A stretch of 64,000 nucleotides of DNA. Origin: an uncultured Thermoleophilia bacterium. Its GTDB lineage: Bacteria; Actinomycetota; Thermoleophilia; UBA2241. Positions 20,540 to 60,024 of this stretch are shown here, piece after piece (positions within the stretch are counted from its first letter, which is position 1; every line of letters starts with the position of its first letter). Below the pieces are notes generated by a model. That model saw only the letters and a list, made by a program, of their open reading frames with translations, had not been told where the DNA came from and ran no database searches. Where the stretch lies: positions 6,916 through 70,915 of the forward strand of contig CAVTKL010000009.1 in the NCBI GenBank assembly GCA_963735345.1. Reading direction: 5' to 3'. The translations under genes were made by a program, and so were the position numbers.

Positions 20540-21487
20540 TCAGGATCGGATCGAACGGAGCAGCTCGATCAGCCGCCCCATCTCCGACTTGTCCTTGAAC
20601 ACGATCTGGATGGTGCCGCCACGGCGCCCCGCGCGGATGCGCACCGGCGCATCGAAGACGCCGTAGAGCTCGTCGATGAGAACGCCCAGGTCGGGATTCG
20701 GGTCAGGCCGGGCCGCGGTCTTGGCCGACGGCTCCACCTCGTCCATTCCTCTGACCAGTTCCTCGGTCTGGCGTACGCTGAGCCCCTGCGCCACGACCAG
20801 ACGCGCCGCCTTGCGCCGCCGCCCGTGGTCGGACAGCGCAAGAAGAGCGCGGCCATGGCCCTCGCTCAGCTCCCCGGACTCGAGCATGCCCTGTACGTCG
20901 TCGGGGAGATCGAGCAGGCGCAGGATGTTGCTGACCGCCGCGCGACTGCGGCCGACCAGCTCGGCGACTCTCTCGTGCGTAAGACCAAACTCGTCGACGA
21001 GGGCAGCGTAGGCGTGCGCCTCCTCGATACTGTTGAGGTCCTCACGAGCGACGTTCTCGGCGACGGCGATCTCGAGCGATGCGGCCTCGTCGGCCGGTCG
21101 CACGAGGGCCGGGATGCGCTCCAGACCGGCGAGCCTGGCGGCGCGCAGTCGCCGTTCCCCTGCGATCAGCTCGTAGCGAGGGCCGGGCGGCGACGGACTG
21201 GCGACGGACTCGGCTGGACCGGTCGCTGCCTCGGGGGTCTCCGGCGGCGACGCCGTCAGCGGCCTCACGACCACCGGCTGAACGACGCCCAAGGCTTTGA
21301 TGGACGCGGCGAGCTCGGCGAGGTCTTCGTCCGCGAACGTGCGCCGCGGCTGACGCCGATTCACCGCGATCTCCGCGAGCGCGAGCTCGCGCAAGCGACC
21401 TTCGACTGCGCCGCTGCGACCCAGGGAGGCCCTGCCGTCGCCGATCAGAGCGCCCAGACCCTTGCCCAAAGCTTTCCTGCTAGACAC
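20540..21487 (-). CDS. parB: chromosome partitioning protein ParB
   Basis: GTG start after AAGGAGG (VSSRKALGKGLGALI). ParB box LAEIAVNRRQPRR and an HTH domain. Confidence 0.9.
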   Translation of the reverse strand: MSSRKALGKGLGALIGDGRASLGRSGAVEGRLRELALAEIAVNRRQPRRTFADEDLAELAASIKALGVVQPVVVRPLTASPPETPEAATGPAESVASPSPPGPRYELIAGERRLRAARLAGLERIPALVRPADEAASLEIAVAENVAREDLNSIEEAHAYAALVDEFGLTHERVAELVGRSRAAVSNILRLLDLPDDVQGMLESGELSEGHGRALLALSDHGRRRKAARLVVAQGLSVRQTEELVRGMDEVEPSAKTAARPDPNPDLGVLIDELYGVFDAPVRIRAGRRGGTIQIVFKDKSEMGRLIELLRSIRS

Positions 21488-22241
21488 GGGAGACGACCTC
21501 CTTGGCGAGATCGAAGTAGGCGTCGCTGCCGGCACACGTCGCATCATAACGCGAGATGGGCAGCCCGTGACTCGGCGCCTCGCTGAGCCGCACGTTGCGA
21601 GGGACCACTGTGCTGAAGACGTGCTCCCCGAGGTGCTCGCGCACTTCTCGTGCCACTTCGCGGCCCAGACGAGTGCGACCATCGTACATGGTCACCAGGA
21701 CGCCCAGGATCACCAGCTCCGGATTGAGATGCTCCTGGACGAGGGCCACGGTGTCGAGCAGCTGCGCCAGGCCCTCAAGGGCGTAATACTCCGACTGCAC
21801 CGGGATGAGGACCTCTCCGGCGGCGACCAGCGCGTTGATCGTGAGCACGCCGAGTGACGGCGGGCAATCCACAAAGACGAAATCGTACTGAGACACCTGG
21901 CCGGTGAGCGCGTTATCGAGCACGTATTCGTTGCCCTCGGCGTTGGCGAGCTCCACGACGGACCCCGCGAGATCGGGACAGGACGGAACCAGCCAGAGGT
22001 GCGCGACCGGCGTCGAGACCGTCGCCTCAGCGACGCCGACGGCCCCTCCCAGGACCCCATACGTGCTCAGGCGCGCGTCGCGGGCACGCGCCATGAGGCC
22101 GGCAGAGGCATTCGCCTGGGGATCAAGGTCGATGAGGAGTACGTCGAAGTCGGCCTCCGCCAAGCAGGCCGCGAGGTTGACGGCCGTCGTGGTCTTACCG
22201 ACGCCACCCTTCTGATTGGTCACGGCGATGACGCGAGTCAC
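21480..22241 (-). CDS. parA: chromosome partitioning ATPase ParA/Soj
   Basis: Deviant Walker A VTNQKGGVGKTTTAVNLAA. Confidence 0.9.
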   Translation of the reverse strand: MTRVIAVTNQKGGVGKTTTAVNLAACLAEADFDVLLIDLDPQANASAGLMARARDARLSTYGVLGGAVGVAEATVSTPVAHLWLVPSCPDLAGSVVELANAEGNEYVLDNALTGQVSQYDFVFVDCPPSLGVLTINALVAAGEVLIPVQSEYYALEGLAQLLDTVALVQEHLNPELVILGVLVTMYDGRTRLGREVAREVREHLGEHVFSTVVPRNVRLSEAPSHGLPISRYDATCAGSDAYFDLAKEVVSRV

Positions 22242-23029
22242 CGATCTCCTTTCACAGGGTCGCCGATACTCACAGACGGCGACCTTGGCGCGGCCCTCAT
22301 CACGTTCCCGCTGAGAGGCCGCTTCGCGGCGAGCCCTTCGCGGCGCGGCAGACGCTGCGGAGTGGGACCGATCTTCTCATACACGACGCCCACAGCGTCG
22401 TCGAGAGGGGAGCGAGGTAACGCGACGACCGCGCCGAACGCAAGGCCGCAGTGAGCTGCGGCAACGGCCCCGTCGCCGCCCTCCTCGGCCACGGCACGGC
22501 GCGTCTTGCTGGCCACCAGTACGCCACCCATGCTCAGCAGCGGCGCGGCCAGCTCGACAAGGACGGGCAAGGGCGCCACGGCTCGCGCCAGCACCACGGC
22601 GAACGCCTCGCGCCCGGGCTGCCCTTGGGCCGCGTACGTCTCGCTGCGCGCACACTCGACGTGGGTGCGCGCGGCGACGCCGGTCGCGAGCGCCGCCGCC
22701 TCCAGGAAGAGGCACTTCTTGGCGGCGGATTCGAGCAGTGTCAACTCGATCGAAGGCAGGGCGACACACAGGGGGACGCCGGGCAGACCCGCGCCGGCTC
22801 CGAGGTCGACCCAGGCGGCCCCGGCCCGCATCTGCAGTCCCGGCACATCGAGGAGGGCCAGAGAGTCGCCGATGAGCACACGAAGGATATCGTCCCGGGT
22901 GCGGAGAGCGGTGATGTTGGACGCGCGCCAGTGGAGCACCAGATCGACGTACCGCGCCAGCGCCCCGGCTTGATCCGTATCGAGGCCAAAGACGGCGGCC
23001 ACCTGTTCCGCGCTGCTCCATGGCTCCAT
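22238..23029 (-). CDS. rsmG: 16S rRNA (guanine527-N7)-methyltransferase
   Basis: Start at the internal Met (MEPWSS). SAM-binding motif VDLGAGAGLPGVPLCVALP. Confidence 0.85.
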   Translation of the reverse strand: MEPWSSAEQVAAVFGLDTDQAGALARYVDLVLHWRASNITALRTRDDILRVLIGDSLALLDVPGLQMRAGAAWVDLGAGAGLPGVPLCVALPSIELTLLESAAKKCLFLEAAALATGVAARTHVECARSETYAAQGQPGREAFAVVLARAVAPLPVLVELAAPLLSMGGVLVASKTRRAVAEEGGDGAVAAAHCGLAFGAVVALPRSPLDDAVGVVYEKIGPTPQRLPRREGLAAKRPLSGNVMRAAPRSPSVSIGDPVKGDR

Positions 23030-23101
23030 GCGGTGAGGGTACCACGGGCGCGAGAGGCGGTCGCGACAGATCTCACCCGCCACGCGGCGGCGACAGGCGG
23101 G

Positions 23102-33879: not shown

Positions 33880-34962
33880 ATGATGGAAGGCAACAAATTC
33901 GGGGCGCACAGGGTCCTTGAGCCAAAGGGCGTGCTGCCGCAGCCGGCGCTGCGCGTCGACAACACTATGGTCATCTACGACAACGAGATCCTCATCGACG
34001 TCGATACGCTCAACGTGGACGCGGCAAGCTTCACGCAGATCGAGGCGGCTGAAGGCGGCGACGTGCGCAAGATGGCACGCCGCAGCTTGGGCATCATCGC
34101 CGAGCGCGGCAAGCATCACAATCCGGACACGGGCTCGGGAGGCATGCTTCTCGGCACCGTGAGGGAGATCGGGCCAAGACTCAAGGACCGCGATCTGAAG
34201 ATCGGTGACCGCATCGCCACGCTCGTCTCGCTGTCGCTCACGCCCCTCAAGGTCGACGAGGTGCTCGCGATCAACAAGGACACCTGCCAGATCAAGGTCA
34301 AAGGGCAGGCGATCCTCTTCGAGAGCGGGATCTACGCGAAGATGCCCGACGATCTCGACGAGGCCCTGGCGCTCGCCATACTCGATGTCGCGGGAGCGCC
34401 CGCGCAGGCGGCTAAACTGTGCCGGCCTGGAGACACGGTCTTCATCATCGGGGCGGGCGGCAAGAGCGGCCTACTCTGCGCCTACGAGGCCCGCAATCGC
34501 GTAGGCGTCACCGGCAGGGTCATCGGCCTCGTCCACGGGGATGCAGGAAAGGCGCGCCTCGAGAGAACGGGATTCTGCGACGACATCATCCAGGGGAGCG
34601 CGACAGACCAGCTCTTCGTGTACGAGGCTGTCAGTGCCCTCACCGCGGGCGAGATGGCCGATCTGACGATCAACTGCGTCGACGTCCCCAATACTGAGAT
34701 GGCCTCCGTCCTGGCGACCAAGGACTCCGGCACGGTCTACTTCTTCAGCATGGCGACCAGCTTCACGGCGGCGGCGCTGGGCGCAGAGGGCATCGGCGCT
34801 GACACGACGATGCTCATCGGTAACGGCTACACGAAGCATCATGCCGAGATCTCTCTGGCCGACGTGCGACAGAGCCCCATCCTTATGGAGATCTTCCAGG
34901 AGACCTACGCGACTGGAGCCGGGCTTTCTGAACCGGTAGGCCTGAAGGCTGACGAGGTCTAG
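33880..34962 (+). CDS. kdd: L-erythro-3,5-diaminohexanoate dehydrogenase
   Basis: 360 aa. Rossmann motif IIGAGGKSG. Overall similarity to Kdd of the lysine fermentation pathway, and adjacency to kamDE. Confidence 0.75.
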   Translation: MMEGNKFGAHRVLEPKGVLPQPALRVDNTMVIYDNEILIDVDTLNVDAASFTQIEAAEGGDVRKMARRSLGIIAERGKHHNPDTGSGGMLLGTVREIGPRLKDRDLKIGDRIATLVSLSLTPLKVDEVLAINKDTCQIKVKGQAILFESGIYAKMPDDLDEALALAILDVAGAPAQAAKLCRPGDTVFIIGAGGKSGLLCAYEARNRVGVTGRVIGLVHGDAGKARLERTGFCDDIIQGSATDQLFVYEAVSALTAGEMADLTINCVDVPNTEMASVLATKDSGTVYFFSMATSFTAAALGAEGIGADTTMLIGNGYTKHHAEISLADVRQSPILMEIFQETYATGAGLSEPVGLKADEV

Positions 34963-34971
34963 CCACCGGCC

Positions 34972-34993
34972 CGGTGTTTCACGTGAAACACCG
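34972..34993. repeat. 22-bp perfect palindrome CGGTGTTTCACGTGAAACACCG (copy 1 of a duplicated motif)
   Basis: The sequence is identical to its own reverse complement. It shares a 20-mer TGTTTCACGTGAAACACCGC with the second copy at 35247-35266. Confidence 0.85.
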
Positions 34994-34994
34994 C

Positions 34995-35038
34995 CGACAG
35001 ACCGGGCGCGCAGAGGACTCTGCGCGCCCGGTCTGTCG
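34995..35038. terminator. GC-rich perfect hairpin (21-bp arms) just after the kdd stop; candidate intrinsic or bidirectional terminator
   Basis: CGACAGACCGGGCGCGCAGAG-GA-CTCTGCGCGCCCGGTCTGTCG. No U-tract follows, as is common in high-GC genomes. Confidence 0.55.
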
Positions 35039-35246
35039 AACCTGCGGCCCCCCCGACCACGCATCAGCGGGAGGCTCGGTGAGCCGCGAGCAGTTCCCGT
35101 ACCGACCATGCGGGGGATCGGCCGGTCGAACCCTCCTCGCGCGCAGCGCTGCTCAAGGGCAACGTATCGAGGGTGCCCGGAGCATCCCATTGCGCACGAC
35201 ACCAAGGGATGCGATTCGCGACACCTCCACATCTCGGGACACGCTC

Positions 35247-35266
35247 TGTTTCACGTGAAACACCGC
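35247..35266. repeat. second copy of the TGTTTCACGTGAAACACCGC motif (16-bp palindromic core)
   Basis: Exact 20-nt repeat of the motif at 34975-34994, about 270 bp away, in an ORF-free convergent intergenic region. Confidence 0.85.
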
Positions 35267-35442
35267 GACGCGACGGCAGTTCAGGTCCTGACTGGCGGCA
35301 TGAGCCCTGGGAGTGGCGCAAGCACGTGGCAGCATCCCTCGCACCGCTCTGCTAGTGCCATAGTAGACATCCGCGCATGCCGTGCGCCCTGCCAGGGACC
35401 ACGCTATCCCCAGGCGTCCCGGCACGCGCCCGGCGTTACCGC

Positions 35443-36606
35443 TCAGGTCCCTCTGGCTGGGCGCTGCAGAGCAAGGCCAGCCACGACCTCCACCGCTGCC
35501 CGCGCCGCGAGTTGGCTCAGGTGGCCCTGGAGGTCGTAGCGCGGCGCGAGACAGCAGATGTCAAACCCTGCGATCCGCCCGCGACTCAGGATGCGCAGCG
35601 CGCGCAGGAGCTCGCGCGCGCTCAGCCCGGCAGGATCGGGGTACTTCTGCCCCCCGTGGGCGGGATCGACAACGTCGATGTCCAACGACACGTAGATCGC
35701 CTCGGTGCCGGCGCCGGCTGCCTCCAGCGCCTCCTGAGCCACCGCGGCGATGCCGAGTTCGTCCACGTCGGCCATGGTGAAGTAGCGGATCCCGAGCTCG
35801 TCGGCGACGTGTTTGTCGCTGAGCGACTCCCGGCCTCCGCGAATGCCGATCTGCACGAAGTTGTCGGGCTCGACGACCCCCAACTCGAAGGCGCGCGCCC
35901 ATTGTGAGCCCGCCCAGTACTTCGGCTCCCGGCTCAGATCGAAGTGCGAGTCCAAGACGACGATGCCCAGCTTGCCGGTCAGCGTCCCCGCAAGCACCTG
36001 GAGGACGGGAATGGGCACGGAGTGGTCGCCGCCGAACACGATGGGGAGGGCACCTGCGGCGAGGATGTCGGCGACCTTCTCGTGAGCACGCAGGAAGGTC
36101 TCCTCCACGTCCCCCGGCACGACGGCGACGTCGCCGTAGTCCATCAAGTGGAGGTAGTCCAGGAGCACGAGATCGCGGCCGGCCTCGGGAAGCAGTCCGC
36201 GGCCGTGACGCAGTGAGTAGAAGACCGAGTGGCGACGGATGGCATCGGGCCCTTCGTCGGCGCCGGAGCGGTAGTAGATGCTGCCCTCCGGCGCCGGCGC
36301 GGCCAAGGGCGGCGCGTACGTGACCGGATCCAGCAGCTTGACGCCTTCGTAAGGAATACCCAGGAAGACAACGTCCGCGCCGCTCAGGTCTCCGGCGCGC
36401 GTCGCCAGTGGCGCCTCCATGAACGTGGGCACATCCCCACGCAAGATAGGGGCCATCGAGCGCTCGGGACGCCCGGCTGAGGCCCTTTCCTCGGCCCGGT
36501 TCCAGGCGGCCTTCACGTCCTTGGCGTCCATGCTTCCTCCTTGGAGGTCAGGCCAGTCTGACTTGCCCGACGCCTTCGAATGCCGTATAAGTATTGTCCC
36601 TCGCAA
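35443..36606 (-). CDS. ureohydrolase (agmatinase/arginase/guanidino-acid hydrolase family)
   Basis: Mn-binding motifs GGDHS, DSHFD and SLDIDVVDPA. TTG start. Confidence 0.85.
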   Translation of the reverse strand: MRGTILIRHSKASGKSDWPDLQGGSMDAKDVKAAWNRAEERASAGRPERSMAPILRGDVPTFMEAPLATRAGDLSGADVVFLGIPYEGVKLLDPVTYAPPLAAPAPEGSIYYRSGADEGPDAIRRHSVFYSLRHGRGLLPEAGRDLVLLDYLHLMDYGDVAVVPGDVEETFLRAHEKVADILAAGALPIVFGGDHSVPIPVLQVLAGTLTGKLGIVVLDSHFDLSREPKYWAGSQWARAFELGVVEPDNFVQIGIRGGRESLSDKHVADELGIRYFTMADVDELGIAAVAQEALEAAGAGTEAIYVSLDIDVVDPAHGGQKYPDPAGLSARELLRALRILSRGRIAGFDICCLAPRYDLQGHLSQLAARAAVEVVAGLALQRPARGT

Positions 36607-36619
36607 GGGACCCGTTCGT

Positions 36620-36695
36620 GGGGCATTAGCTCAGCTGGGAGAGCGCCTGGATCGCACCCAGGAGGTCAGCGGTTCGATTCCGCTATGCTCCACCA
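36620..36695 (+). tRNA. tRNA-Ala (anticodon CGC)
   Basis: GGGGCATTAGCTCAGCTGGGAGAGCGCCTGGATCGCACCCAGGAGGTCAGCGGTTCGATTCCGCTATGCTCCACCA. G3:U70 Ala identity pair, cloverleaf with anticodon loop AUCGCAC, and an encoded CCA end. Confidence 0.9.
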
Positions 36696-40925: not shown

Positions 40926-41050
40926 GCCCAGCCTGTGACTGGCTGCCACATGTGACTCCTGGAGCAAGACTCCCTCGATAGGGTCGTCGCTGTGCCTCAG
41001 GGGACGACGAGCAGGACGCCAAAGAGCGCTCTCTGACCATCCGCCTCGCG

Positions 41051-41093
41051 GAACAGGCGGGCGGGGTGGCGGCGCCACCCCGCCCGCCTGTTC
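41051..41093. terminator. perfect 43-nt palindrome (21-bp arms); bidirectional terminator candidate between convergent genes
   Basis: GAACAGGCGGGCGGGGTGGCG|GCGCCACCCCGCCCGCCTGTTC. Confidence 0.6.
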
Positions 41094-41126
41094 CTTCGCA
41101 AGGGCAGATCAGCGCCCCGCAGGCAC

Positions 41127-50084: not shown

Positions 50085-50395
50085 CCCGACTCCTTATGAC
50101 AATCAAGAGAAGAGTTTCTCTTCATCATCGTCATAGCACCTGTTGACAATGCGGAGAGCGACGCTTCTTCCTGCACTGGGGCGTCATTGGCCTCTGCAGG
50201 GATCTGTGGACAAATACACGGGATCGGGCGCGTTCTCCGCAGCCCCCTGCGGTACAGGCGAAGCATAGCGGATTTTCATGTTGAGACGACGACAATATCC
50301 ACCGTCAACGCGAGGCTCTTCACACTTGCATGTGGAGAGGCGCCGGGGTCCTCTCGTGAGTCACTCGCGAGATCGTGCCCGGAAACGGAACCCCG
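50085..50395. promoter_or_regulatory. dnaA-dnaN intergenic region with DnaA boxes and the most AT-rich stretch of the window (oriC candidate / DUE)
   Basis: Perfect TTGTCCACA (rc at 50206-50214), TTGTCAACA (rc at 50141-50149) and weaker boxes near 50295 and 50331. AT-rich runs at 50091-50150 and 50250-50300. Confidence 0.6.
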
Positions 50396-51838
50396 TCAGC
50401 GGCTGGATCGTAGCCGTGTGCTGATAAGGTCGATCAAGTCTTGGAGTTGCGGATCGTGGCCGTCCTTGAGTTGGCGCTCCACCTTGTCGACCGCGTAGAT
50501 GACCGTCGTATGGTGGCGTCCCCCGAAGCGTGCGCCTATCTGCGGCAGCGAGGTCTCCGTGAGTCTGCGCGTCAGGTACATCGCGATCTGTCGGGCATAG
50601 GCGACTTCCTGAGTGCGACGGTTGCCGCGCAGGTCGTTGACGTGAAGCCCGAACTGCCTGGCCACCTCCGCCTGGATCATCTCGACGGTGATGGCGTGCT
50701 GGTAGGCCTGCGGGACGATGTCCTTGAGCGCTTCCTTGGTCACGTCGAGGGTCACCTCGACGCCGCGGAACGAGGCGAAACTGACCACACGGGTGAGCGC
50801 GCCATAGAGCTCGCGGATGTTGGTGGTGACACGGGAGGCGATCCACTCAAGGACTTCCGGCTCGCGGATCTGGAAGCCTTCCCACTTCACGTGCTTGCGG
50901 AGGATCGCGATGCGCGTCTCCAGGTCAGGCCGGCTGATGTCGACGACCACACCCTGGCCGAAGCGAGAGCGCAAACGCTCTTCGAGTTCCACCAACTCGC
51001 GTGGCGGCCGATCGGACGTGATCACGATCTGCTTGCCCGCCTCGTAGAGCGCGTTGAATGTGTGGAAGAACTCGACCTGCGTCTGCTGCTTCTCGACGAG
51101 AAACTGGACGTCGTCGATGAGCAGGACGTCGTTCTGGCGGTACGCCTGCTTGAAGCCGTCGATGCGGTTCTTGTCGGTGACGGCGTTGATGAAGTCGTCG
51201 GTGAAGCGCTCCACCGTCACGTACTTGACCTGCAGATCAGGGTGCTGCTGGTGTGTGGCGTGAGCGATGGCCTGGATGAGATGGGTCTTGCCGAGCCCGG
51301 TGTCGGCGTAGATGAACACCGGGTTGTACGCGGTCGCCGGCGACTCGGCGACGCTGCGCGCCACAGCCGCCGCGTACTGATTGTGCGGCCCCTCCACGAA
51401 GCGGTCGAAGAGGTAGCGCGGATTGAGGTCGCCAGAGGCTTGGGAATGGCGCGTCTCAGGAGCGACGCGAGAGGCCTTCGCCGTGGGTCCTCGCTTGTTC
51501 GGGGCAGGGTCCTCCCCCTCCGTTGACACGGGACCCAGGGACGGCAGCGCCGCCGCACGAGCGTCGACGACGACGCGCACGCTCACTGCGTCGCCAAGCA
51601 CTTCGCTGAGCGCCTCGGCCACCATCCCGGCGAGGCGCTTTTCGATCCAGTCCCGGGCGAAGTCGTTGGGCACGCCGATGACGAAGGCTCCATCATCGAG
51701 ACCGAGAGGCAGCGTGCGATCGAACCAGAAGCGGAAGGCGGATTCGTTGAGGCGTCCGCGAAGATGGGCCTTCGCGGTGTCCCAGATGAGTGTCAGTTGG
51801 TCGTCCGTGGCCGCCTCGTGGTGTGATTCCCCGAACAC
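50396..51838 (-). CDS. dnaA: chromosomal replication initiator protein DnaA
   Basis: 480 aa. AAA+ Walker A GDTGLGKTHL and a C-terminal DNA-binding domain (VAYARQIAMYLTRRLT). GTG start 29 nt after the upstream gene stop. Confidence 0.95.
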   Translation of the reverse strand: MFGESHHEAATDDQLTLIWDTAKAHLRGRLNESAFRFWFDRTLPLGLDDGAFVIGVPNDFARDWIEKRLAGMVAEALSEVLGDAVSVRVVVDARAAALPSLGPVSTEGEDPAPNKRGPTAKASRVAPETRHSQASGDLNPRYLFDRFVEGPHNQYAAAVARSVAESPATAYNPVFIYADTGLGKTHLIQAIAHATHQQHPDLQVKYVTVERFTDDFINAVTDKNRIDGFKQAYRQNDVLLIDDVQFLVEKQQTQVEFFHTFNALYEAGKQIVITSDRPPRELVELEERLRSRFGQGVVVDISRPDLETRIAILRKHVKWEGFQIREPEVLEWIASRVTTNIRELYGALTRVVSFASFRGVEVTLDVTKEALKDIVPQAYQHAITVEMIQAEVARQFGLHVNDLRGNRRTQEVAYARQIAMYLTRRLTETSLPQIGARFGGRHHTTVIYAVDKVERQLKDGHDPQLQDLIDLISTRLRSSR

Positions 51839-51867: not shown

Positions 51868-52764
51868 TCAGAGGATGCTTTCCAGGAGATGAAGACCTTC
51901 CTCGGCCAAGGCGCGCTTGCCGTCGCCGACCGCGTGGATGAGGCCCATCTCCTGCAGTATAACGAGTTCTCGGAACGCGGTCGCCGGGGCGACGCCGAGT
52001 TCTTTGGCGACGGCGGTGGGGCCAGCGGCGCCCAACTCCATGAGCAGGACCAGGACCTTCGTCTGTCGGGTCGAGAGCTTCACCTTGGGAGGCGACACGA
52101 GCGGCGCCAACTCGGCGGCGTGGGCCGGCATCTTGATCGTGAACACCGCGCCCCCGCCCAGGTTGTCCTCGACGGTGAGCACGCCGCGCAGGAACTGGAG
52201 CGACTCGCGCGCCACCGGTAGTCCCGACCCTACTCCACGGATGAGGTCGCGCTGCATGGCGGTCGCCGTGGTGAAGCCCGGCAGGAAGGCGCGCTCCTTG
52301 TCGTCGACGCCGGGGCCGTGGTCGGAGATACGGATCGTCTGGCCGTTGTCGAGGATAGTGATCACCACATCCTTGAAGTAGGCATGGAGGAGGTTCTCGA
52401 TGAGTTCCTGGAGGACGGTGAAGGGGATCTGACCGCCCTGCTCACGGCATTGGCTGTACGTCTTCTCCGCTAGAGAGGCGATGAGCGCCGGCAGGTCCTT
52501 CTCCTCGACGATCACGACCCGCGGCGGCGACGTGAGGGCATCGTAGATCGCGATACGGGGGGCGCCGCCGCCGGAGGGGACATCGGGAAGTCCGCGAGGT
52601 GCGGGCGATGGGTCAGTTGGTGTGTCGACAACGGGGACCGCGGCGCCTGCAGCCGGCTTCTCAGGCTGGATCGCGGCCTCCCTGTCGGCGAGCAGCCTGT
52701 CGAGGAAGGACTCCATAGGGGGCACGAGTATAGCAGAGCCGTTTGCCCGCACCGGAACCGTCAT
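51868..52764 (-). CDS. GHKL (HATPase_c) ATPase domain fused to a C-terminal winged-helix HTH; unknown N-terminal domain; origin-proximal, co-directional with dnaA
   Basis: 298 aa. Bergerat-fold N-box (ELIENLLHAYF), G1 (DHGPGVDD) and G2 (GVGSGLPV) motifs. C-terminal HTH LSTRQTKVLVLLMELGAAGPTAVAKELGVAPATAFRELVILQEMGLI. No kinase H-box. The N-terminal 120 aa have no recognisable family. Confidence 0.6.
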   Translation of the reverse strand: MTVPVRANGSAILVPPMESFLDRLLADREAAIQPEKPAAGAAVPVVDTPTDPSPAPRGLPDVPSGGGAPRIAIYDALTSPPRVVIVEEKDLPALIASLAEKTYSQCREQGGQIPFTVLQELIENLLHAYFKDVVITILDNGQTIRISDHGPGVDDKERAFLPGFTTATAMQRDLIRGVGSGLPVARESLQFLRGVLTVEDNLGGGAVFTIKMPAHAAELAPLVSPPKVKLSTRQTKVLVLLMELGAAGPTAVAKELGVAPATAFRELVILQEMGLIHAVGDGKRALAEEGLHLLESIL

Positions 52765-52805
52765 CGGGGCTCAAGAAACGCGGTTTTGCAGCCCGAACGG
52801 CAGAG

Positions 52806-53129
52806 TTGTCCACAGGGTGTTCACGAAGTGTGGAGAGTGTTCCCGCCACATGACGCGCGCCCTCCCGACGGACGCCTGTTGTGGAGAAGACGGTTTCAGT
52901 CCACTCCTCGTGGTAGACCGCCGGCCGTCTCGGAGCGAATCGATGGCGCCCGCGCTCAAGACGCCGACCGGCTTCGACGATCGCCTTGAAAAGACCTGTA
53001 AATCGGCATGTTCGACGGCGACATTCCGGGTCTTCGCCTCGGCGAACCGACGTCCAGTCGTCAACCCCTTATCCACGGCGATTGTGAGCCTGATAGCACG
53101 GCAAAGCGGTCTTATCCACATTCTCCACA
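52806..53129. promoter_or_regulatory. cluster of at least 6 DnaA-box 9-mers (second oriC module / DnaA autoregulatory region)
   Basis: TTGTCCACA at 52806-52814; rc TGTGGAGAG at 52829; rc TGTGGAGAA at 52880; TTATCCACG at 53069; perfect TTATCCACA at 53112-53120 directly abutting TTCTCCACA at 53121-53129. Confidence 0.6.
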
Positions 53130-59914: not shown

Positions 59915-60024
59915 AAGATCCGCAGCTGGTCCGTCCGCGTACTCCGCGGACCCGCATTCTGCTTGACCCCGGCGGGGGTCTGAGTATACTCAGGCCCCCG
60001 CCGTGTCACCTCGACGAGAGGTCA

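Follow-up and report, generated by a model that had tools for sequence, protein, structure and literature searches.

What are the two identical palindromes that lie between convergent genes in this stretch of DNA, the 64-kb window analyzed here in its entirety? They occupy a non-coding gap of 480 bp (34963-35442) that is bounded, as originally predicted, by the 3' ends of kdd on the forward strand (33880-34962) and of an arginase/agmatinase-family gene on the reverse strand (35443-36606; Pfam E 1.7e-60). kdd encodes L-erythro-3,5-diaminohexanoate dehydrogenase (NCBIfam Lys_ferment_KDD 254.5 bits, cutoff 200) and is the last gene of a lysine-fermentation operon; the gene caller places its start one codon later (359 aa). 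Copy 1 of the palindrome (16-bp core at 34975-34990) begins 12 nt past the kdd stop codon and copy 2 (35247-35262) has the identical core, TGTTTCACGTGAAACA; the gap and both copies carry no strand assignment. A duplicated 20-mer had been described about 270 bp apart, and TGTTTCACGTGAAACACCGC does occur twice, with a start-to-start spacing of 272 bp. The palindrome is perfect over 22 bp at copy 1 (34972-34993) and over 16 bp only at copy 2 (13-nt arms, 85%), again as described. Because the two copies have like right flanks, with the 4 nt CCGC in common and similar sequence further on, ACCGC(C)GAC, a local duplication is suggested, and the pair is most likely the product of one.

Both cores match the canonical parS consensus, tGTTNCACGTGAAACa, exactly, as the original prediction had stated. 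In the 64 kb, TGTTTCACGTGAAACA is found at these two positions only, even when up to three mismatches are allowed (0.04 expected by chance), and none of 100 shuffled sequences contained two or more matches. The degenerate pattern GTTNCACGTGAAAC, searched with up to two mismatches, returned the same two sites only. No further parS site was found in the ~18 kb beyond the window that could be read from strain-level relatives, and the count for this lineage covers ~82 kb (the window plus this flank in close strains). The core of copy 1 is also intact in L001, a strain-level relative contig that was found via a thiolase look-up and is 98-99% identical.

A parS site should be matched by a ParB protein, and ParA and ParB had been placed ~13 kb away. 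Indeed, a gidB-parA-parB operon lies 13.5 kb from the palindromes: parA (21480-22241, reverse strand) comes after gidB/rsmG (22238-23083) and overlaps the start of parB (20540-21487, reverse strand). ParA is a Soj-like Walker ATPase of 253 aa (AAA_31 E 1e-56, CbiA E 5e-30). ParB, the presumed parS-binding protein, comprises 315 aa from a GTG start and contains a ParB helix-turn-helix domain (Pfam HTH_ParB E 5e-36, ParB_N E 5e-27; TIGR00180 165 bits, cutoff 58). It carries the N-terminal motif KALGKGLGALIG and a GERRLRAA box at residues 110-117, which corresponds to Caulobacter G101-R104 in the GERRxR CTP-binding motif. Its closest solved relative is Caulobacter ParB (6T1F/7BM8, E 4e-48), for which there are structures with parS and with CTPgammaS. 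G170, S172, R173, N178, G201 and R204 (Caulobacter numbering), residues that contact parS, are kept, and of ten positions that contact parS or determine specificity, two are changed relative to Caulobacter (Q162 to H and K171 to R). According to PMC7383237, R173 and G201 show absolute conservation in ParB and are switched in Noc.

The expectation that the sites are origin-proximal was likewise borne out. dnaA (50396-51838, reverse strand) is followed on the same strand by dnaN, recF, gyrB and gyrA, in a cluster at 42-52 kb. One DnaA-box cluster (50141-50213) occupies the gap between dnaA and dnaN, where the GC content of the window is lowest, and another is located at 52623-53129; dnaA and these clusters are 15-18 kb from the palindromes. 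The cumulative GC skew reaches its minimum at 41.8 kb.

We compared the locus with those of 75 species-level Thermoleophilia relatives (1.3 Mb of related sequence). In this set, 94 of 96 parS-like sites lie 0-900 bp downstream of kdd and only two elsewhere, in 1.24 Mb, corresponding to 1.50 sites per kb after kdd versus 0.0016 per kb away from it, a ~930-fold difference. Directly 3' of kdd, 62 of 69 related loci retain the 14-bp core GTTTCACGTGAAAC, while its surroundings have diverged; the core is invariant, mismatches are nearly confined to positions 1 and 16 at the outer ends, and the information content of the flanks is about 0 bits. The low-identity kdd loci lack a parS site; several of them are second copies in the same MAG. 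Loci contain one to three copies, with signs of local duplication, and the genes adjoining parS vary by lineage while parS stays. The arginase-family gene adjoins it in the lineage of the window and a few relatives only, and ~27 relatives have a co-directional gene predicted next, according to a crude GC3-based gene finder from which only two large neighbor families were used. Beyond the clade, the same 20-mer is present on at least 120 unrelated metagenomic contigs from many organisms (GC 46-72%). Among the matches listed, a ParA homologue is encoded in the short retrieved stretch of 56 of 120 contigs and multi-site parS clusters are common; none of the 120 matches listed contained a relative of the 480-bp gap.

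The consensus match, the cognate ParA and ParB, the proximity to the origin, the rarity of the motif in the ~82 kb covered and its conserved core after kdd all support the parS reading. Based on these sequence features, the two palindromes are very probably chromosomal parS sites, the centromere of the ParABS system of an uncultured Thermoleophilia (Actinomycetota) bacterium.

What else does the gap contain? It had been described as lower in GC, which is not the case: its GC content is 68.3% compared to 66.9% for the window, 69% of 480-bp windows have a GC content equal to or below that of the gap, and its AT-rich parts are the two parS cores only. That it holds no credible ORF was confirmed, as the GC3 of its ORFs is 0.56-0.72 versus 0.82-0.91 in real genes; the gene caller predicted no gene in the gap of the near-identical contig L001. 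The gap is 95.2% identical to that of L001, versus 98.6-99.6% for the flanking genes, and in comparison with all relatives more distant than L001, parS is the only shared part. Apart from the parS sites and a hairpin, the DNA of the gap is most likely spacer.

This hairpin (34995-35038, no strand assigned) had been noted as having 21-bp arms and was found as such, with perfect, GC-rich arms of 21 nt (34995-35015 and 35018-35038) around a 2-nt spacer. It begins 33 nt 3' of the kdd stop codon and 4 nt past the copy-1 palindrome, so that palindrome and hairpin are arranged side by side, copy 1 directly before the stem, rather than nested. The region 34950-35060 folds with -68.4 kcal/mol (z = -8.0), and elsewhere in the window two long hairpins of like kind directly follow the 3' ends of genes. 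A terminator scan revealed no U-tract after the hairpin, the stem being followed by AACCTGCGGCC. U-tract-less ("I-shaped") intrinsic terminators occur in high-GC Actinobacteria, and the hairpin is probably an element separate from parS, a terminator of this kind for the kam/kdd operon.

Where relatives have two sites, a long GC-rich hairpin with covarying arms often carries the kdd-distal parS at its apex. At least six perfect flanking pairs are present at 16 of 30 distal sites and at none of 30 proximal sites (chance 0.1%). Arm covariation at distal sites is 0.361, compared to 0.143 in shuffles (0 of 500 reached 0.361), and the proximal-site control remains at background. Extended parS palindromes are also seen on unrelated high-GC metagenomic contigs, at ~5-11% of parS sites among the matches listed.

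These stems raise the question of whether the palindromes act mainly at the level of RNA, as 3' stem-loops that terminate or stabilize the kdd and/or arginase-family transcripts, the parS match being incidental. Their position at the 3' ends of convergent genes, the tandem stem-loops formed by copy 1 and the 21-bp hairpin (z = -8.0) and the covarying hairpins around many distal sites of relatives would fit such a role. However, a terminator requires a stem and no fixed sequence, and a 14-bp core that is invariant over 75 species while the surrounding stems vary freely therefore counts against it. Moreover, proximal sites lack an extended stem and show the covariation of shuffled sequences, copy 2 in the window has no stem extension, a scan of the gap found no U-tract, and the invariant sequence is the exact consensus for ParB, of which a cognate copy is encoded. 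We thus regard an RNA-level role as improbable. Perfect palindromes are also typical of operators, and in the ~27 relatives mentioned above the sites lie upstream of the co-directional predicted gene, as would suit a dimeric transcription factor acting on lysine fermentation or on the downstream gene, or a Noc-like ParB paralogue. Such a function is very unlikely, given that most relatives, like the window, have the sites between gene 3' ends rather than at a promoter, that a scan of the gap found no promoter-like site, and that the neighboring gene changes by lineage while the site remains. In addition, the sequence is that of parS rather than of a Noc site, the window ParB does not reach the Noc cutoff and is devoid of the Noc residues (see below), and among the matches listed, 56 of 120 unrelated contigs carry parA along with the 20-mer.

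The gap itself might also be taken as the functional unit. With 480 bp it is long for a convergent pair and contains mechanical ORFs of 60-143 aa, and it could in principle encode a small RNA or a small protein that the parS sites merely flank; a possible small RNA between the copies had been proposed originally. The evidence does not support this proposal. The ORFs do not show the GC3 bias typical of real genes, scans of the gap found no promoter or terminator consensus, and a search for Rfam families returned none above noise, with sub-threshold miRNA-type hairpin matches on the 21-bp stem only. The gap shows no excess of RNA structure, its folding energies on both strands equaling those of shuffles (z -0.01 and -0.60), and it evolves faster than the rest of the locus, being conserved at the strain level only. 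A hidden gene is accordingly most improbable. Alternatively, the two copies could represent the ends, or copies, of a MITE- or REP-like element with the intervening 256 bp as its body, since the pair reads as a 24-nt, 92% inverted repeat around these 256 bp and relatives have one to three copies with signs of local duplication. The inverted repeat, however, is a by-product of each copy being palindromic, and no other copies exist in the 64 kb and the ~18 kb of flanks. The 256 bp have no match in the window or at any locus, save the same position in L001, and neither a transposase nor a target-site duplication is present. The dispersal that the original prediction had named beforehand as speaking against parS was not seen, with only two sites away from kdd in 1.24 Mb of related sequence. 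We therefore give a mobile repeat next to no weight.

Given that the palindromes are very probably parS, their mode of action can be proposed by analogy with a mechanism established for the family. A ParB dimer would recognize each 16-bp palindrome via its helix-turn-helix domain, and CTP bound at the N-terminal GERRxR domain would close the dimer into a clamp. The clamp could then leave parS and slide over the flanking kilobases, and because it slides off, repeated loading would build up a partition complex around 35 kb. This complex would be expected to stimulate the ATPase activity of ParA, moving the newly replicated origin region, and would probably load SMC. The two sites, 272 bp apart, might serve as two loading points of one complex. 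For these particular sites, the binding and spreading of ParB and the loading of clamps and of SMC are inferred from the family.

How does this centromere compare with known systems? Chromosomal parS sites were reportedly surveyed by Livny, Yamaichi and Waldor in 2007. The sites of Bacillus subtilis, of the Spo0J type (tGTTNCACGTGAAACa), share with the present ones the same 16-bp sequence, the location close to the origin, a nearby ParA and a ParB with a CTP motif, and, over the ~82 kb covered, the low copy number. Here, however, both sites occupy intergenic DNA at a distance of 13.5 kb from parAB instead of lying within or adjacent to parB, and the host belongs to an unstudied, uncultured Thermoleophilia lineage; a separation of 13.5 kb is within the normal range. 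Copy numbers of 2-10 parS sites per chromosome are normal (PMC7022226). Mycobacterium smegmatis has three sites with GTTTCACGTGAAAC (listed as 3/3), and the number of parS sites in Corynebacterium glutamicum is 10 (PMC7022226 Table 1). These sets resemble the Thermoleophilia sites in their invariant 14-bp core, their small, tight clusters in the ori domain and their high-GC actinobacterial hosts, but the Thermoleophilia cluster is anchored at the 3' end of the lysine-fermentation operon, in at least 62 species-level genomes. Two parS sites only, in the ori region, are also seen in Hyphomonas neptunium, listed as 2/2 with the identical 16-mer TGTTTCACGTGAAACA, and on chromosome I of Burkholderia cenocepacia (PMC7022226); these hosts are Proteobacteria and their counts are genome-wide, whereas the Thermoleophilia count covers ~82 kb.

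The Noc-binding site (NBS) of Firmicutes is likewise palindromic over 16 bp and recognized by a member of the ParB family. It departs from parS at positions 1 and 6, however, and NBSs are dispersed and excluded from the terminus rather than clustered at the origin. Noc requires Q173, K179, K184 and R201, where the window ParB has R, I, D and G. An identity as NBS and Noc was therefore rejected on the grounds of the parS sequence, the score against the TIGR04285 Noc model (199.7 bits, below the cutoff of 315) and the missing Noc residues.

The arrangement of parS at hairpin apices also invites comparison with I-shaped terminators. The hairpin in the window and those around the distal parS sites of relatives share with them long, perfect, GC-rich stems 3' of genes and the lack of a T-run; they differ in that the stem loop or apex in relatives holds a conserved protein-binding site, and termination is putative here. 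A keyword search of the literature found no published account of a parS nested in a hairpin apex. One possibility, which we put forward tentatively and consider rather doubtful, is that parS in this clade, and at the ~5-11% of sites on the unrelated contigs listed, is deliberately nested in a hairpin, yielding a dual-purpose element that would combine a (bidirectional) terminator or cruciform with a ParB loading site. If so, the loading site could be shielded from read-through transcription, or extrusion of the hairpin or cruciform could gate access of ParB. Alternatively, the nesting may be mere co-location, the palindrome sitting in a terminator loop at no cost. Template-switching "palindrome growth" is unlikely to account for the extended palindromes on its own, since both proximal and distal sites would then be expected to show them, at odds with the 0 of 30 versus 16 of 30 observed.

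Very probably, then, the centromere of this uncultured Thermoleophilia chromosome is fixed and the contig region is marked as the ori domain, an assignment that helps to orient and close MAGs of the clade. As parS is found just after kdd in at least 62 species-level genomes, its position relative to kdd might serve as a marker. parS, its clustering near the origin and ParB-CTP clamps are textbook knowledge, and the finding is therefore nothing new in kind. Its wider potential lies only in the hairpins with parS at their apex, which, if functional, would connect the loading of the centromere with the termination of transcription or with DNA secondary structure.

Two exact copies of the 16-mer TGTTTCACGTGAAACA were found in the window, at 34975-34990 (copy 1) and 35247-35262 (copy 2), with no further match at up to three mismatches in the whole 64 kb; shuffled versions of the window gave a mean of 0.04 matches, and none of 100 shuffles contained two. 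The repeat finder returned a 20-mer common to both copies at a spacing of 272 bp, delimiting copy 1 as a 22-bp perfect palindrome (34972-34993) and copy 2 as a perfect palindrome over its 16-bp core only, in agreement with the original prediction of a 20-mer duplicated about 270 bp apart with these palindrome lengths. The proposed identity of the core with the parS consensus was likewise borne out, as the degenerate consensus GTTNCACGTGAAAC, searched with up to two mismatches, matched only the same two positions in the window. Taken together, this consensus match, the parAB genes 13.5 kb away, dnaA and DnaA boxes at 15-18 kb and a conserved, kdd-linked position make it very likely that the two palindromes are canonical parS sites of this uncultured Thermoleophilia chromosome, as had been suggested.

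On the minus strand, gidB/rsmG (22238-23083) is followed by parA (21480-22241) and then by parB. The GTG start codon of parB, at 21487, overlaps with the parA 3' end, and the parB product of 315 residues begins with MSSRKALGKGLGALIG. The parB start lies 13.5 kb from copy 1, close to the 13 kb expected for ParA/ParB. Between 52 and 42 kb, the same strand carries dnaA (50396-51838), dnaN, recF, gyrB and gyrA consecutively. Clusters of perfect and one-mismatch DnaA boxes were located at two places. One, at 50141-50213, falls within the dnaA-dnaN gap, where the GC content of the window is lowest (~51%); the other, at 52623-53129, is upstream of the HATPase_c gene at 51868-52764, which directly precedes dnaA in a slot usually held by rpmH-rnpA. 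The cumulative G-C minimum falls at 41.8 kb, about 8 kb from the DnaA-box cluster. With oriC at any plausible position, judged by dnaA, the DnaA-box clusters and the G-C minimum, its distance from the parS pair is therefore 7-18 kb; dnaA and the DnaA-box clusters themselves are 15-18 kb away from the pair, consistent with the origin-proximal location originally proposed. Just beyond the right end of the window, close strains carry four to five MTTB-family (trimethylamine methyltransferase-like) paralogues in a row (L198-L200, 11547-15969), and after these come genes for a radical-SAM/LAM_C protein and a corrinoid activator of the RACo type.

Among solved structures, the window ParB best matches Caulobacter ParB (6T1F with parS and 7BM8 with CTPγS; E 4e-48), ParB/Spo0J of Myxococcus and Bacillus, and Thermus Spo0J, with Noc proteins scoring lower. 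Among NCBIfam models, it exceeds the cutoff of TIGR00180 (ParB/RepB/Spo0J partition protein; 165 bits vs 58) and remains below that of the Noc model (200 bits vs 315). The HMMER alignment to Caulobacter ParB is ungapped over residues 104-205, and an offset of +10 from the chain index yields a Caulobacter numbering that reproduces all residues named in Jalal et al. In this numbering, the CTP box (G101-E-R-R104 and R106) and the parS contacts G170, S172, R173, N178, G201 and R204 are kept, while Q162 is replaced by H and K171 by R; I and D are found at positions 179 and 184, which vary naturally. R173 and G201 are reported to be absolutely conserved in ParB and switched in Noc, whose specificity requires Q173 and R201, plus K179 and/or K184 (Jalal et al., PMC7383237). 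By these residues, the protein is a member of the R-x-x-G class, which is specific for parS. It differs from Caulobacter, Bacillus and Thermus ParB in a Pro/Ala/Ser-rich stretch of about 20 extra residues (LTASPPETPEAATGPAESVASPSPPGP; residues about 77-103, window 21180-21260, minus strand), inserted after the conserved N-terminal box and before the GERRxR CTP motif.

The gap holding the sites (34963-35442) is flanked by kdd (L-erythro-3,5-diaminohexanoate dehydrogenase; 33880-34962, plus strand; NCBIfam equivalog model KDD, 254.5 bits vs a cutoff of 200), the last gene of a lysine-fermentation cluster with D-lysine 5,6-aminomutase α and β subunits and thiolase, and by an arginase/agmatinase-family gene (35443-36606, minus strand; Pfam E 1.7e-60), so that both neighbors are as first named. 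Its supposed lower GC content did not hold, since the gap has 68.3% GC vs 66.9% for the window and exceeds the median of 480-bp windows. The lack of a credible ORF was upheld: mechanical ORFs in the gap have a third-position GC of 0.56-0.72, compared to 0.82-0.91 for real genes of the window, and the gene caller placed no gene in the gap of the near-identical contig L001.

For a small RNA between the copies, which had been raised as a possibility, we found no support. The sole Rfam match in the whole window at gathering thresholds is a tRNA-Ala(CGC) at 36620-36695, and a permissive scan of the gap gave only sub-threshold microRNA-type matches that merely recognize a long hairpin; the sequence right of this hairpin (404 nt) folds no more stably than shuffled sequences (z of -0.01 and -0.60 for the two strands), and neither a sigma-70-like promoter nor a canonical terminator was found in the gap. 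The gap is 95.2% identical to that of L001, vs 98.6% for kdd, 99.2% for the arginase-family gene and 99.6% for the thiolase gene, and in all more distant relatives alignment is limited to the parS sites and the sequence immediately next to them. Because ORF bias, Rfam families, structure, a promoter and conservation are all missing, the DNA between the copies behaves as neutral spacer. Between the hairpin and copy 2, about 38 bp (35050-35087) are wholly different in the otherwise 95-99% identical L001, which suggests a replacement or indel hotspot.

For comparison, 75 loci were retrieved by the kdd protein (69-89% protein identity) from species-representative genomes, all uncultured Thermoleophilia or Actinomycetota MAGs, and all 1.3 Mb were scanned for the 16-mer with up to two mismatches anywhere. 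Of 96 parS-like sites, 94 are found downstream of kdd at a distance of at most 900 bp, a density of 1.50 per kb vs 0.0016 per kb elsewhere (~930-fold). At least one site was present in 62 of the 69 loci with enough downstream sequence; 36 loci have one site, 26 have two and two have three. Five of the seven loci without a site are low-identity kdd loci, two of them demonstrably second kdd copies whose counterpart in the same MAG has a site (e.g. L059 without and L050 with a site). Mismatches are nearly all at the outer positions 1 and 16, whereas the inner 14-mer GTTTCACGTGAAAC, the actinobacterial core given for M. smegmatis (PMC7022226), is essentially invariant, and the flanks, taken as 25 columns per side, carry 0.0-0.2 bits. 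Crude GC3-based gene finding, from which only the two large families were used, placed next to the site a convergent small glycine-rich protein without Pfam match in 38 loci and a co-directional Mrp/ApbC-type Fe-S carrier ATPase in 20; the arginase-family neighbor is confined to the lineage of the window and a small number of others. Given the invariant core, the nearly information-free flanks and the changing neighbor, parS stays with the kdd 3' end, and strong purifying selection acts on its sequence rather than on a structure or on a gene containing it.

The behavior of a dispersed, origin-distal repeat, named at the outset as the outcome that would speak against parS, was not seen, as only 2 of the 96 sites in 1.3 Mb lie away from kdd; strain-level relatives contain no further parS-like site at up to three mismatches in about 10 kb to the left and 8 kb to the right of the window. 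Metagenomic contigs with the exact 20-mer number at least 120 and stem from many unrelated organisms; 56 of those listed also code for a ParA homologue in the few kb retrieved for each, as expected of the universal chromosomal parS. Because two or more 14-mer cores are common among the 20-mer contigs listed (65 of them; maximum 18), duplicated or clustered parS sites appear to be ordinary. The chromosomes tabulated in a review carry 2 to 22 parS sites, and Hyphomonas resembles the window in having two, with exactly the same 16-mer (PMC7022226). Beyond the 16-mer, copies 1 and 2 also agree in the next four bases (CCGC) and then, with a one-base indel, in GAC. Since parS was clearly tandemly duplicated with its flanks in, for example, L047 (sites 2 and 3; 11433, 11471), L051 (sites 1 and 3; 4407, 4535) and, with a 33-bp spacing, L017 and L020, copy number in the kdd-linked cluster seems to change by local duplication; the 272-bp spacing in the window is at the long end compared to the usual 32-141 bp in relatives.

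The predicted 21-bp-arm hairpin was recovered by the repeat finder, with two perfect 21-nt arms (34995-35015 and 35018-35038) starting 4 nt past the copy-1 palindrome. The region 34950-35060 folds as a tandem of stem-loops, one formed by the parS palindrome and one by a 20-bp stem (-68.4 kcal/mol vs -40.0 ± 3.5 for shuffles). Only two hairpins of the same class exist elsewhere in the 64 kb, at 41050-41094 (22-nt arms, 100%), between the 3' ends of a 2-hydroxyacid dehydrogenase gene and a convergent DUF2202 gene (L001 gene calls), and at 59970-60003 (19-nt arms, 95%), just past a solute-binding-protein gene. As all three lie just 3' of genes, they are probably terminators of this genome lacking a U-tract, a type described for high-GC Actinobacteria. 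Apart from the predicted terminator next to copy 1, no further feature was detected in the spacer around the parS pair.

While palindrome and hairpin are adjacent, not nested, in the window, the kdd-distal site of relatives with two sites very often lies inside a much longer perfect palindrome (e.g. L024, 11224-11265; L039, 10462-10503; L056, 11251-11292; L065, 11251-11292). The GC-rich arms, adding 6-19 pairs each, differ wholly between species yet remain complementary; in L024, parS is flanked by GACAAGGGCCACC and GGTGGCCCTTGTC, and L039 has 19 extra pairs per arm. At least six perfect flanking pairs were observed at 16 of 30 distal, 0 of 30 proximal and 3 of 34 single sites, vs 0.1% of random centers in the same loci. 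In ungapped alignments anchored solely on the parS core, the distal set gave a covariation of 0.361 (shuffles 0.143 ± 0.018, 0 of 500 reaching 0.361; slid partners 0.10-0.21), with 89 cells changed on both sides vs 37 expected, whereas the proximal set was at background (0.164 vs 0.166). A purely mutational origin by palindrome correction is disfavored by the asymmetry between proximal (0/30) and distal (16/30) sites; this difference favors a selected hairpin. Most simply, the selected hairpin would terminate transcription in both directions, that of kdd and that of the convergent small gene, and its apex would be formed by parS. Because unrelated metagenomic contigs also have extended palindromes (at least six pairs per arm beyond the 14-mer at 5% of non-query and 11% of query sites in the contigs listed; e.g. 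L107, 330; L156, 1806 and 2721; L104, 217), parS at a hairpin apex would extend past the Thermoleophilia clade. A non-exhaustive keyword search of the literature found no published account of such hairpins.

As in other members of its family, ParB would bind copies 1 and 2, load there as a CTP-dependent clamp and then spread, and ParA-driven segregation and SMC loading may follow. The parS pair itself is an element of a well-known type; only its anchoring at the kdd 3' end and the hairpin-apex arrangement in relatives go beyond routine annotation.
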